Shown here: positions 27,001 to 36,000 of the stretch, one piece after another | Position numbering within the stretch: position 1 is the stretch's first letter | Layout of the letters: each line of letters starts with the position of its first letter | NCBI RefSeq assembly: GCF_055900595.2 | Contig: NZ_CM148325.1 | DNA length: 64,000 bases | Reading direction: 5' to 3' (one strand) | Made by a program: the position numbers

Positions 27001-30000
27001 ACCGCGATCGCTGTTGTTGGTGAGCGTGCAGTAAACGCTGCCGGCGTGATATGGATCGACCGCAATCCACTCCGGGCGGTCCATTTTAGTGGCCCCCACG
27101 GCGTCTGCCGCCAGACGGGTTTTAATCAACAGGTCGCCCTGGTTTTCAAACCCTTTACTGGCGTCGAGCCCATTTTGTCCGAACACCAGCGGTAGCCACT
27201 CGCCTTTGCCGTCGTCGTTAAATTTCGCCACGTACAGAGTGCCTTTTTCCAGCAGGTGCATGTTGGCTTTGCGATCCTGCGGGTTGAATTTTCCTTCCGA
27301 GACAAATTTATATATGTATTCGAATTTCTGGTCATCGCCCATATAGACCACAACGCGGTTATCCGGGGCAATTGTCACCGCCGCGCCTTCGTGTTTGATG
27401 CGACCAAGCGCGGTGTGCTTGCGCGGCACTGAATGCGGATCGTATGGATCGATTTCCACCACCCAGCCGAAGCGGTTCGGCTCGTTCGGCGTGGCGTCGA
27501 CGCTGAACCTTTTATCCACTTCGTTCCAGCGGTAAGAGTCGTCGCTCCCGCTGATACCGTAACGTTTTTCCAGCGGGTTCATCTCTGCTTTTTTTACGAA
27601 AATATCGGACCAGTTCTCTTCACACGTCAGATAGGTGCCCCACGGCGTAAATCCGTTGGCACAGTTCTGCATGGTGCCGAGAATGATTTCGCCTTTCGGA
27701 TCGTCAACTGTTTGCATCAGTGGGTTATGCAGCGCCGGACCGGTGATTTTCATCGGCGTGTTAACGGTGATGCGGCGTGCGAACGATGACGGGCGCACCA
27801 CTTCCCAGCCCAGGGGCACTTTTTTTACTTCAATGACCGACACGCCCATCGCGTTCTGGCCTTTAAGAGCTTTATCGGCGCTCCAGTTGGCATCGCCATC
27901 TTTAAACAGTAGACCGTTATCGATGTATTCATGGTTTATGGCAAGCAGGCCGTGATCGGAGCTGTTCCCGCCCTGCGGCAGGCTAAACCACGCCATGCCG
28001 TCGTGGTGCATCCCGGCCTGCGCCGCCTGTTCTTCCGTGGTGTTGCTACCGTCGGTTTTAAAAACCGGCAGATTTCCGGCAATCCCGGTGGCGTCGCCCC
28101 ATTTGTAGAAGGGCTTCGCGATGTATCCTTCCGGCACGATAACGGTATCTTCCGTGGAAACCGGCAGGCTGGTGAAACCGAGCGTCGTCGCTTTGCCGAG
28201 GTTACCGCTTGCTTTGGAGACCACTTTCGCCAGCGCGTTTTCCTGTTTCAGCAGAAATGGGAACGCTGCCGCGGCACCGGCGACCGTGCCGGCCTGTAAC
28301 AGACGGCGGCGTGACAAATAAACTTCCGCCACCTGCGAAAACGCGCGGTTATCGCTCGGGTTACTGATTTCTTCACTATGCTCACGTTTGAATAAAGTTT
28401 TTAACGGTCTGCCCATTGCGGTTTCCTTTCAAAAAATCGATTTCAAGGGGAATCATTTTTATGCACGTGAGTCTACGGAAAGATTGTTACAGAAATATAA
28501 CAATTGTTATAAAAAACCGGCGATAAAATCATCTATGGTCGGGACGCGGTTTCAGGTATGATGTGAGGCTAGAATTCTGAACGCTCTCTTTTGTTGAGCA
28601 TATATGGACGTCCCGGGTGAGGCAAGTACTGGTTCGATGCGGTTTGCGACCATATATCCGGCGTCGTTAGTAGGTTCAATGACCTGCGCCATGATGTTAT
28701 CCGGGCCCTGTTTCCTAATCACTACACCGGTATTTGATTACCCAGGTCAACTTCAGACTGTTACAGGGGCGGTAGCCGTTATCTCATCAGTGTATGTAAA
28801 CTCAGTTAAAAATATTTTCTATAACTTGCTGTTTTTATTTAATTCATCACAACGGCCTTCTGCATATTAAAATCAATACTATCGCTCAAAACACGCCAGA
28901 TGATTCTTGTCAGCTTATTCGCCAGCGCACCAGTGGTTTTCAGGAACCCTCGACGGGCCTCCATCCTTTGCAGACAAATACTCAGACTGTCAGTGAGCTT
29001 TTTCACACAGCGCATTACAGACTGAAATGGCACACTGAATTTGGTCACCTGAACAGAGGTGATATGCTCACCTCAGAACAAGACTGGTGCCCTAATGAAA
29101 AAAAGAAATTTTAGCGCAGAGTTTAAACGCTAATCCGCCCAACTGGTTGTTGACCAGAACTATACGGTGGCAGATGCCGCCAAAGCTATGGATATCGGCC
29201 TTTCCACAATGACAAGATGGGTCAAACAACTGCGTGATGAGCGTCAGGGCAAAACACTAAAAGCCTCTCCGATGACACCAGAACAAATCGAAATACGTGA
29301 GCTGAGGAAAAAGCTACAACGCATTGAAATGGAGAATGAAATATTAAAAAGGCTACTGCACTCTTGATGTCAGCCTCCCTGAACAGTTCTCTATAATAGG
29401 GAAACTCAGGACACGTTATCCTTTGGTCACTCTCTGTGTAGTGGATCGGTAATTCAGGACACCTCATTTTCACTGTTAATGTTAAAAAGTGAAAATGAGG
29501 TGATGCATGATCAAAACTCGTCGGACTAAACGTACCTTTTCCCCGGAGTTCAAGCTTGAAGCTATCGAACAGGTGGTTAAATACCAGCGTGATGTCAGAG
29601 AAGTCGCGCTGGCACTCGAGCTCAACCCTGACCATTTGCGTAAATAGATACGGTTGTATAAGCAGGAACTTCAGGGTATTGAGCCCGCTGGTAATGCTAT
29701 TACTCCTGAACAACGCTAAATTAAGCAGCTTAAAGCGCAGATAAAGCGCCCTGAGATGGAAAAAGAAATACTAAAGCAGGCTGCCGTGCTGATGAGCGAA
29801 ATCCCCGGGGAAACTGTCGCGCTAATCACACAGCTGAAAGCAAAGTGGCCAGTGCGGGTTCTTTGTCATTTATTCGGTATTCACCGTAGCATTTATTACG
29901 CGCAGGTGAAGCGTCCTGTTAATGTGCAAAGAATTGAATTACGAAGTCGGGTGAGGGCTGTCCATGCTCTCAGTCGTGGCGCAGTCGGTAGCCGGGCAAT

Positions 30001-33000: not shown

Positions 33001-36000
33001 TTTTGTGCTCAACTACAACTGTCCAACTTTTTGGAGTCAGTACACTCTTACGTCCGGCTCACCGGAGGGGCTATATTCTACCCCTCCTTCTCTCTGCAGC
33101 ATCATCGATGGCTGTTATCAGAAGGAATACCTGATACCCAGTATTCCTTCCGCATCCGTCTTAAAGTAACCATCAAAACTGCTGTTTACTTTCGCCTGCA
33201 CTGACAGTTTCTCTGTCAGCTTTCCGTTGATACCAAACGAAACGGTATAGCGGTCAGCCTTCTCTGCATCATAGTGACGGGCTTTCCAGTCATCACGCAG
33301 GGTCATTCCGGGCATATCCTTCAGAGTGATATTCCGCCAGATACCTGCCTTCAGCGTCATATTTCCGGATACTTTTTCTGCCTCAAACCCGGCTTTCAGC
33401 CACAGGGCATCGCCATCATAAAGCTCCACGCTCCGCTCCCGGCCCTGCAGACGATTTCCGTCCACCCGGGCACCGTTCAGTGAAACAGTCGGTGTTATCG
33501 ACATATCAAGGGGGGATGCATGCATCTTCCACCCACCACGGATACCCGCTGTCAGGATATGACTTTTTGCCCTGCCGGACAGGTCACTCAGCTCTCCCTG
33601 AATAGTGTAATCTTCAGACAGCTCCCGGTATCCGGTCATACCATCCACAAACAGACCAGCGGCAAAGGATTTGCCCGCCAGAACATGCACTCCCCACAGG
33701 CTGAAATCATCCCGGTAGTCATCTGTGCTGCTGTGCCCCCGGTAAAACTCTATCCCCATCCCCCACCAGGCATTACCGGCAGAAGAGTGGCGGAATCCCA
33801 CATTCAGTCCGCTCTGATTCAGGCTGAAGTCGTCATATCCACCATGACTGTACCCTGTCATAGCCCATGCACCGCCGTCTGCATCACTGTTATCCACCAC
33901 CTGTGTCCAGCGGTCAGCACTGTCACTGAGAATGAACTCACGGGCGGCAAACATGGTTCGCGCCTTCTTCAGAAGATATATGCTATCTGCCCCTTTAAAC
34001 AGGGAACTGCCTTTCACGGTAACCTCTGAGTTCTTTCCGGAAACAGCGGAACCAGATTCATCCGCGCGGTTGTTACCACTATCACCATCCGCCGCAACCT
34101 TCCGGATTTCATTTTCCGATACCGGTTGTGCCTGTGAGTCCGCCAGACCAGCGTTATTTTTCAGTTGCCAGTAAACTCTGCCGTCTTTCTCCTGCACCTG
34201 TGTGTCAGGGGTATAAACAGTAAACCCCCTGTTCAGGCTGGCAAAGGAGAAGTACCCGTGAGAAGTTCCGACCGGTGCAGATGCCAGAGTCAGGTCATTT
34301 TTCAGTGTGACAGTCTGATCAAACAGGGAGGACAGGTCCAGTGTGTTATGTCCCCCCGTTGCCTTATTCAGGATATCAATCCGGTCGCCCGTGTTGTCGG
34401 CGGTGCTGACCCCCATGGCGATATTCATACTGCTGGCATGCAGTGTGTTTACCGTCAGCGTTTTCGGCGACCAGTTGTCTGTCACAAAGGAGAGCGTCCC
34501 GCCTTTGCTTCTGAACGAATCCAGCGTGGAGCTTTTCGTCATATTCCAGTGACTCCGGCGCGACAACTCCACATGCGAGCCGGCATGACCGCTGATATCA
34601 CCATTAAAGGTTGCGTTCATGATATCCAGCGTCGTCTTCCCGTACAGAACAGCACTGCCATTAAACACGCTACGGTCTGCATCCTTCACCGCTTCTGATG
34701 TGCCTTCTTCCAGCGTAAAAGCCGTACCGTTACCGTCGTTTTTGTCAATAAAGACCCGGCTGTCGCCCAGTGTGACAGTCGAATCTGTTGCTTCAAGCGT
34801 GGTGTTCAGCATGGCATTACGGCCAAGGCCAAAATCGGTGTTCTTCAGTGACAGTCTGTCAAAGGTAAAACTGCGATTCTCCCAGTCCTCCTGACTGAAT
34901 GACGTGGGCTGATTCAAAACCGAATGGTCTCCACTGGCAGCAAGTTTGTCAGCCACAGACTGTGTATTGTATGCATGGATAACCGGATGACCCTGCAGTG
35001 TCAGACGCCCGTTTTCCCGGGTGAAGGTTCCGGACATATCAGCAGAACCATCCATAACAAACGTACCGGCACTCTTCGGGTTAAAACTGATATTACCGGT
35101 TAATTTACCATGGAAAATATATTGTGTATTTTTTCTGGCCTCTTTGTCCGCATCCTCAAGAGTATTAAAATAATCAGCACCTCTGAACATATCCGGAAAA
35201 ATTTTTTCTCCAGGCGAAGGAGACCACGCAATACTGCTGGTTTTTAATATAAAGAATTCAGTCTTCTGCGTTTCATCATTGAAATACTCATAAACCCGAC
35301 CTAAAATTCTTGGTGTATCTTTCCCGGTCCACTTAATGGCATCATGCATAACCAGAGAGATTATTGCATTTTTGTTACTGCCATTGTGGATTTGAGCACC
35401 ATAATCTGCCGCCTTTATTTCGTGAAAGCCAATATCATTACCGTTAACATCCAGAATACCTCCCCTGTATCCCCAGGAGATGTTATCCGGATTTACCTGC
35501 CGGTCATCAGTCAGCACTACTGTCGGTCGTCCGCTGGCAATATTCACACTACTGAAGGCCTGCACCTGCCCGTTACTGTCTGCCTGCTGTTTCAGAACAA
35601 CGGTTCCGTCCCCGGCCTTCAGACCACCCTCATTGATACCCGTGCCCTGTATCGTCAGCGTACCTTCACCAATCTTATGCAGGTTATCGCCTTTAACACC
35701 GTTAACCTGCCAGTTTACGAACACGCCTTTATCCACAATAATACCGGCACCGGTCCAGGTACTGTTGTTTGAAGTTGCAACCGTATAATCATTATGGAAT
35801 GTCAGAGAACCTGCCCCCTGTGCAACATTGTCTTTCAGGTCAATCTGTCCATTCTGTCCCAGAAATATCAGATTTTTACCGGCATTCAGGTCATTTCCCT
35901 GCTGCCCGTGCATGGCATATGTGGTGGTTCCCTGTGTCAGCGTGCCAGCTCCGGTGCTGCTGTTAAAGCCCCACTCCAGCGCACCACCTTCCGATGTTCT

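Follow-up and report, generated by a model that had tools for sequence, protein, structure and literature searches.

A layered stack of insertion sequence relics beside a SPATE gene in an Escherichia coli genomic island

The DNA analysed here is a 64,000-nucleotide stretch (the window) of contig NZ_CM148325.1 from the RefSeq assembly GCF_055900595.2, an Escherichia coli chromosome. Bases 28594-33017 of the window are 4.4 kb of unbroken insertion sequence (IS)-derived DNA built from four elements: the 3' remnant of an IS110-family element, an IS911-like left end, an isoform of the IS3-family element ISKpn37, and a copy of the IS66-family element ISEc8 that splits the ISKpn37 isoform in two. This locus is read, with a probability of roughly 88%, as a layered pile of known ISs at the junction of two island modules, none of them encoding a complete transposase and the whole having no function of its own. 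Chance resemblance can be set aside, the identities between the segments and named ISs being 93-99%. All of the elements are known, and the stack reveals no new element or mechanism. RefSeq already labels the IS open reading frames (ORFs) of the stack as frameshifted or incomplete pseudogenes, and a literature search found no paper on this particular IS stack.

An earlier reading of the bare sequence (the original prediction) had described a nested graveyard of IS911-like, IS3-family and IS66-family elements at 29023-33100. Alignments and profile matches bear out the nesting and the family calls, and alignment to intact reference copies, the check proposed at the time, mapped the lesions and the deletion described below. 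The segments do not resolve into a single composite element with intact reading frames. The extent required correction at both ends: the stack begins 430 bp further left, where the IS110 layer had been missed, and 33018-33117 is spacer. The claim that all elements are inactivated holds in that the four lack a complete transposase, but the tnpB gene of ISEc8 is intact.

The chromosome of GPEC389, an E. coli isolate from chicken, matches bases 28400-33200 at 100%, and seven other complete genomes with the same arrangement are 99.7-99.9% identical over this range. The island of GPEC389 begins at a tRNA-Phe gene with a tyrosine integrase (P4-type), followed in order by an AAA protein, a phosphoethanolamine transferase, an outer-membrane protein, an iron-ABC remnant, PhoX, the IS stack, an S6-family (SPATE) peptidase and an AbgT transporter. 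The IS stack lies at the junction between two modules of this tRNA-Phe genomic island. Its features are as follows, with IRL and IRR denoting the left and right inverted repeats.

28594-29023, minus strand: IS110-family element, 3' remnant, cut off by the IS911 left end
29024-29436, plus strand: IS911-like left end (IRL and most of orfA, ~413 of 1250 bp), from alignment to IS911 copies
29437-33017, plus strand: ISKpn37 isoform overall, split by ISEc8, from terminal repeats and 97.4% identity
29437-30306, plus strand: ISKpn37 left fragment (reference 1-869), with IRL, orfA and the 5' part of orfB
29460-29502, plus strand: hairpin at the ISKpn37 left end, over the orfA Shine-Dalgarno sequence (18-nt arms, 94% complementary)
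30307-32747, minus strand: ISEc8 (IS66 family) in ISKpn37 orfB, 2441 bp against 2442 bp in intact copies
30344-31881, minus strand: tnpC pseudogene of ISEc8, with a 1-bp deletion between 31620 and 31621
31931-32278, minus strand: tnpB of ISEc8, intact, 115 amino acids (NCBIfam IS66_TnpB, E 3e-35)
32275-32655, minus strand: tnpA pseudogene of ISEc8, W52 to TAG (NCBIfam IS66 TnpA match)
32748-33017, plus strand: ISKpn37 right fragment (reference 983-1253), with the 3' end of orfB and IRR
33018-33117, no strand assigned: spacer from the ISKpn37 right end to the SPATE stop codon, from sequence reading

The four relics and their lesions

The remnant assigned to the IS110 family by its NCBIfam and tblastn matches holds the last ~61 transposase codons and the 245-bp 3' non-coding end of its element; the C-terminal end alone is kept, and the DEDD N-terminal catalytic domain is absent. 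A 69-amino-acid ORF (28839-29048), which extends into the IS911 segment, found no match in a Pfam search, and aligned with positions 302-340 of 343 of the NCBIfam IS110 profile NF033542 (E 2.8e-4). A tblastn search aligned it at 85% identity (E 2e-26) with the C-terminal end of a Klebsiella aerogenes plasmid gene product annotated as an IS110 family transposase. The DNA of 28594-29022 covers the final 184 nt of that K. aerogenes gene and the 245 bp downstream of it, with 94.2% identity over 429 bp. A bridge or seek RNA in the 245-nt 3' non-coding end was also considered and dropped, there being no Rfam match even at E ≤ 1 and a fold z-score of +1.27.

The IS911-like segment begins at 29024 with the IRL TGAAATGGCAC... 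and has the IS911 succession of IRL (TGAAGTGGCACACTGAATTTGG...) and then orfA (MKKRNFSAEFKRESAQLV...). Two differences fall in the first 22 bases of the IRL, and orfA, starting at 29095, is colinear in the alignment apart from codon 13, where GAA has become TAA (E13*, 29131-29133); the nonsense codon that had been proposed for this orfA is thereby placed. One A has been lost from the A6 run of the IS911 A-AAA-AAG frameshift site (~29355-29359). Homology to IS911 stops at ...CACTCTCTG, the right two-thirds of the IS being absent, and RefSeq labels the ORF 'transposase, frameshifted, incomplete'. The 413-bp stump shares 93.2% of its bases with a Shigella dysenteriae IS911 copy and 93.7% with the pO157 copy. 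In ISfinder practice, isoforms of an element share at least 95% nucleotide identity. At 93.2% to the S. dysenteriae copy the segment falls below this value and, as judged from sequence, is best classed as an IS911-like relative, not as an IS911 isoform. It resembles the S. dysenteriae element in an IRL and orfA that are 93% identical, including the helix-turn-helix (HTH)-coding region and the region of the A-AAA-AAG site, and differs from it in consisting of the first ~413 bp alone, with E13* and the 1-bp loss in the slippery run.

The IS3-family element abuts the IS911 end at 29437 and is split by the 2441-bp IS66-family element, as the original prediction had it. A repeat search gave 27-nt terminal inverted repeats at 29437-29463 and 32991-33017 (TG...CA; TGTAGTGG... 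and ...CAACTACA). The reference used was an intact 1253-bp copy on a K. aerogenes plasmid, annotated 'IS3-like element ISKpn37 family transposase', to which the window copy is 97.4% identical (97.36%) over 1138 aligned bases; the best E. coli copies (pWP4-S18, pVirR1, UTI89) are all pseudogenes. Identity is thus at least 95%, orfA and orfB with an rve transposase are present, and profile searches matched the NCBIfam IS3 family NF033516 (E 5e-44) and Pfam HTH_21 and rve. The intact reference reads through in two frames, a -1 frameshift layout. With ISKpn37 of K. aerogenes and Raoultella plasmids the window copy shares the terminal repeats and this orfA/orfB layout; unlike them, it is split by ISEc8, lacks reference 870-982, carries two orfA stops and two 1-bp indels, has a remodelled left-end hairpin and is without the 3-bp target duplication. 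The stops are W47 to TAG (29645-29647) and E71 to TAA (29717-29719), and the indels are an extra G at 29807, which fuses the orfA tail to the orfB frame, and a 1-bp deletion (T) at 32856/32857 in the right fragment. RefSeq labels the right fragment 'integrase core domain-containing protein, frameshifted, missing N-terminus', and in AR_0085 the same fragment is labelled ISKpn37 family. The flanking trinucleotides are CTG and ACT, against GGC and GGC at the reference copy; without a 3-bp duplication, at least one flank would have been replaced later.

The hairpin at 29460-29502 has a minimum free energy of -24.4 kcal/mol, against -17.2 in the intact reference. Six clustered changes (reference 30-35 and 51) all raise the complementarity of its arms and yield a near-perfect stem, which looks like the product of quasipalindrome templated mutation. 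The remodelled hairpin is common to the window and strain GF60 and does not occur in the other ISKpn37 copies examined. As a separate observation, the extra G at 29807 imitates the programmed -1 frameshift and gives a 184-amino-acid in-frame ORF (29756-30310) made of the orfA tail and a truncated OrfB.

The ISEc8 copy is 99.35-99.39% identical to intact 2442-bp copies on pO157 and on E. fergusonii and E. coli plasmids, and RefSeq labels 30307-32747 'IS66-like element ISEc8 family transposase'. Its ends are GTAAGCGTAC and GTACGCTTAC, with inverted repeats at 30307-30328 and 32726-32747. The boundaries were set by a five-way alignment, in which the first G (30307) is ambiguous with IS3 sequence; the ends given in the original prediction are correct, while its insertion point of 30307/30308 shifts slightly, as the element starts at 30307 and not at 30308. 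GTAAGCG terminal repeats, a length within ~2.4-2.7 kb, the genes tnpA-tnpB-tnpC and at least 95% identity place the copy in IS66/ISEc8. An 8-bp target duplication is absent, the flanks being GCTGAGTT and GGCGTTAT, and this reflects secondary deletion rather than non-membership in the IS66 family. ISEc8 of E. coli O157:H7 chromosomes and pO157 has the same GTAAGCG... repeats, the same gene order and an identical TnpB, at 99.4% identity over the full length; intact ISEc8 differs from the window copy in having neither the length of 2441 bp, the tnpC frameshift and tnpA W52* nor the loss of the 8-bp duplication.

The TnpC sequence is identical over 87 residues and then out of frame, with the frameshift at codon 88 of 512. 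The gene is left as an N-terminal ORF (31501-31881) and a C-terminal ORF of 420 amino acids (30344-31606), the latter matching the NCBIfam IS66 transposase at E 5e-137. TnpB is 100% identical to that of the intact pO157 copy. The stop in tnpA is a TGG to TAG change in codon 32500-32502 (plus-strand C to T at 32501); a Trp-to-stop change in tnpA and a frameshift in tnpC had both been called beforehand, and correspond to W52* and to the 1-bp deletion at 31620/31621. Among seven ISEc8 copies aligned (window, B771, FORC_082, BEN2908 and three plasmid copies), W52* occurs in the window copy only, and RefSeq annotation suggests that the closest relatives of the window likewise lack an intact tnpA. 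In the sibling strain F1022, ISCro1 lies inside the tnpA region of the same ISEc8, giving ISCro1 in ISEc8 in ISKpn37, one level of nesting beyond the window.

The deletion at the ISEc8 junction and the age of the layers

Between the two ISKpn37 fragments, reference 870-982 is missing (113 bp, ~38 codons); the left fragment ends at reference 869 (870 counting the shared G at 30307) and the right one begins at 983. The original prediction had put this loss at about 100 codons, which overstates it ~2.7-fold, although '~100 bases' would fit. The lost DNA encodes VCRALRNALETRPRDGRLLFHSDQGVQYKSNKYRKLL, including the catalytic Asp (HSDQG) of the DDE triad. Strain GF60 carries the same IS911 stump, ISKpn37 copy and SPATE gene, and there ISKpn37 has its full 1253 bp, the 113 bp among them. 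Wherever the two can be compared, this copy has 0 mismatches to the window, down to the two stops and the two indels, and it is interrupted at reference 828-835 by ISCro1 with a perfect 8-bp duplication (GATTATCG). The GF60 copy shows that the resident ISKpn37 was still whole, yet already dead, when the first IS66-family element came.

Independent ISEc8 insertions in other ISKpn37 copies carry 8-bp duplications, AGGTGTTC in CU42ET-1 (reference 942-949) and GGTTATCC in pMDL26 (~1217-1224); 8 bp is the length of the IS66 target duplication given in PMC6778807, citing Machida 1984. The 8 bp flanking the window ISEc8 differ, with GCTGAGTT on the left and GGCGTTAT on the right, and one endpoint of the deletion is the exact ISEc8 terminus. 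Because GF60 keeps the 113 bp, the duplication is normal elsewhere and an endpoint coincides with the ISEc8 terminus, the deletion is real and tied to ISEc8. The claim that the insertion was accompanied by a deletion is thus supported in substance by GF60, by the clean duplications elsewhere and by the mismatched flanks in the window.

The human isolate B771 has identical junctions and an ISEc8 in which tnpA, tnpB and tnpC are all intact. Because this ISEc8 is fully intact at the same junctions, the ISEc8 mutations of the window are recent, and the element is a late arrival whose decay proceeds separately in each lineage. Greater age attaches to the IS110, IS911 and ISKpn37 layers, given their 93-97% identity to reference copies and their multiple lesions common to all carriers. 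Other strains have further insertions at the same spot: ISCro1 inside ISEc8 (F1022), ISCro1 or ISEc23 abutting a shortened ISKpn37 right fragment (AR_0085, ECCNB12-2), IS1414 at the ISKpn37 right end, and an IS21-family element inside ISCro1. The original prediction of an old recombination hotspot beside the SPATE gene therefore stands as to the hotspot, on these insertions (ISCro1, ISEc23, IS1414, IS21-family) and the divergence of the islands described next; as to age, it applies to the IS110, IS911 and ISKpn37 layers only, ISEc8 being recent.

About 32 further genomes, including FORC_082 and the avian pathogenic E. coli (APEC) strain BEN2908, match the window from 28400 to exactly 32747 and lack the SPATE gene (type A). 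Beyond 32747, an HTH remnant, DUF4198 and a TonB-dependent receptor replace the ISKpn37 right fragment and the SPATE gene; the latter two occur together in ~16 genomes. The type A island of BEN2908 sits at tRNA-Leu, and that of FORC_082 meets the window sequence again at its right end (~46550). B771 lacks the tnpC frameshift, which the window has in common with F1022 and the type A islands. Across 28400-32747 the window has five fixed differences from both type A genomes (FORC_082, BEN2908), one at 30648 and four at 32281-32708, in the last 467 bp of ISEc8. On the simplest reading, the SPATE-bearing type (type C) gave rise to type A when a crossover took place inside its ISEc8, the partner being a further copy of that element. 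The direction from type C to type A, SPATE-bearing first, is suggested by GF60, where the contiguity of IS911, ISKpn37 and the SPATE gene predates ISEc8.

Alternative histories of the stack

The most likely cause of the 113-bp loss is an IS-mediated adjacent deletion following a single insertion, which is favoured roughly 2:1 on parsimony. The same product could have come from two ISEc8 insertions in the same orientation, at reference 869/870 and 990/991, followed by homologous recombination that removed one copy and the DNA between. This history predicts the observed flanks exactly (...GCTGAGTT on the left, GGCGTTAT... on the right), and ISEc8 does enter ISKpn37 repeatedly in the same relative orientation, at 942-949 in CU42ET-1 and ~1217-1224 in pMDL26. 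A single IS66 with mismatched 8-bp flanks after such recombination is also documented in Agrobacterium (PMC6778807). It requires, however, two insertions within 121 bp in one lineage, and a search of 5,426 complete E. coli genomes turned up none with a pair of ISEc8 copies in this ISKpn37. With three events against one it is less parsimonious, and it is held to be possible, at well short of even odds. The Agrobacterium plasmid pAt15955 (PMC6778807) offers a likeness in its lone IS66-family element with non-matching 8-bp flanks and loss of adjacent DNA; there, 270 kb were lost between two documented IS66 copies, whereas here the loss is 113 bp and a second copy is undocumented.

A different history would make the window a recombinant of two sources, with the left half (IS110, IS911, the ISKpn37 left fragment and ISEc8) from a SPATE-less island, the right half (ISEc8, the ISKpn37 right fragment and the SPATE gene) from a plasmid or another island, and the crossover in ISEc8. 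The left junction is indeed common without the right one (in the ~32 type A genomes), plasmids of E. fergusonii and E. coli have ISEc8 beside related SPATE genes, and single-nucleotide polymorphisms (SNPs) cluster at the ISEc8 right end. Such a history holds that the two ISKpn37 fragments were never one copy, which is very improbable in view of GF60, where the IS911 remnant, a complete ISKpn37 and the SPATE gene are contiguous without ISEc8 and identical to the window at every shared base. Because of this arrangement, both fragments are taken to derive from one resident copy. The plasmids, moreover, lack the ISKpn37 right fragment altogether, and an origin from two sources is accordingly given very little credence as a whole. 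A plasmid origin of the right half was rejected on the E. fergusonii and E. coli ISEc8-SPATE plasmids, which are without the ISKpn37 right fragment and resume homology only at 33064.

Several points weigh against the account of a layered pile with an ISEc8-linked deletion. The element names are RefSeq/PGAP labels of near-identical copies and not ISfinder reference sequences. Neither the IS911/ISKpn37 junction nor the ISKpn37/SPATE junction shows a target duplication. For ISEc8 the adjacent-deletion mechanism is inferred, and a second insertion with recombination yields exactly the same product. An intermediate with ISEc8, the 8-bp duplicate and the 113 bp would have the junction GTACGCTTAC-GCTGAGTTGGTGTGTAGGGC (ISEc8 end, duplicate and undeleted orfB) or, reciprocally, ...CTCTGGCGTTAT-GTAAGCGTAC. 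Synthetic junctions of either polarity found no full-length match in the same 5,426 genomes, matching only independent insertions elsewhere in ISKpn37, and the deletion could therefore have been simultaneous with the insertion. The clustering of SNPs at the ISEc8 right end has a binomial P of 6e-4, from a test chosen post hoc and two type A genomes.

Order of events, function and the SPATE side

The layered account would run as follows, the order of the IS110, IS911 and ISKpn37 arrivals being inferred. An IS110-family element would have settled downstream of phoX, and IS911 would have landed in it, leaving the left 413 bp of IS911 and the 3' 430 bp of the IS110 element. ISKpn37 would then have ended up with the IS911 stump on one side and the 3' end of the SPATE gene on the other, later decaying through two stops and two 1-bp indels. 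ISEc8 next entered the dead ISKpn37 orfB, with 113 bp and the expected 8-bp duplicate lost at one end; afterwards its tnpC was disabled by a 1-bp deletion and, in the sublineage of the window, its tnpA by W52*. The present role of the stack is passive, ISEc8 and the other relics supplying homology for recombination.

Co-option of the relics, through the intact tnpB, the 184-amino-acid ORF (29756-30310) or outward transcription serving the host or the regulation of phoX or the SPATE gene, is scarcely credible. The 100% conservation of tnpB would speak for it, yet this identity merely reflects the recent arrival of ISEc8. The ORF created by the extra G at 29807 is a RefSeq protein (WP_000409994.1), but lacks two of the three DDE residues and a start context of its own. 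The stack does lie 178 bp upstream of the phoX start codon; the SPATE gene faces it with its 3' end, so its promoter is unaffected. Promoter-like and terminator-like sites in the stack are at or below shuffled-sequence expectation, and an Rfam search of 28000-33600 gave no matches.

A doubtful further suggestion is that IS66-family elements (ISEc8, ISCro1, ISEc23) prefer the 3' half of ISKpn37 orfB as a target, the relics acting as landing pads. ISEc8 has entered ISKpn37 independently at least three times, within reference 869-1224 and always in one orientation, and ISCro1 at least once, at 828-835; a loose G-TTAT motif is common to the target duplications or flanks GATTATCG, GGTTATCC and GGCGTTAT. 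With a handful of insertions, the repetition could reflect target preference or merely survival in neutral DNA. If the preference is true, accumulated IS66 copies would be crossover points at which islands and plasmids swap virulence modules, for example the SPATE gene. The tnpC frameshift, tnpA W52* and the 113-bp deletion can serve as lineage markers for ordering strains with this island. Between SPATE-bearing and SPATE-less islands at tRNA-Phe and tRNA-Leu, the breakpoint of exchange would lie inside ISEc8, useful for tracing the spread of a Tsh/Sha-like protease gene among avian and human E. coli. The stack records how the SPATE gene came to its place, and its annotation is now precise, with four IS relics and every lesion mapped.

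In the spacer, bases 33018-33063 gave no match, and from ~33064-33076 onward the sequence is 90-93% identical to that beside SPATE genes in other contexts. It holds a GGAGGGG/CCCCTCC hairpin, just outside which homology to SPATE loci begins and which may be the terminator stem of the SPATE gene. The SPATE gene itself (33118-36942, minus strand) encodes 1274 amino acids with Peptidase_S6 and ESPR domains; a Pfam search of this protein gave no autotransporter beta-barrel match at E<0.01. A 1291-amino-acid allele in B771 is 94% identical and a SPATE on an E. fergusonii plasmid 82%, and 734 contigs carry the exact protein, always under a generic name. As a chromosomal gene, it may be related to the Tsh/Sha/TleA group. 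Farther downstream, the annotation lists island debris at 40335-41539 and 43796-45200, where a further IS3-family transposase is partial, YebF is a pseudogene with an internal stop and a phosphoethanolamine transferase is truncated.

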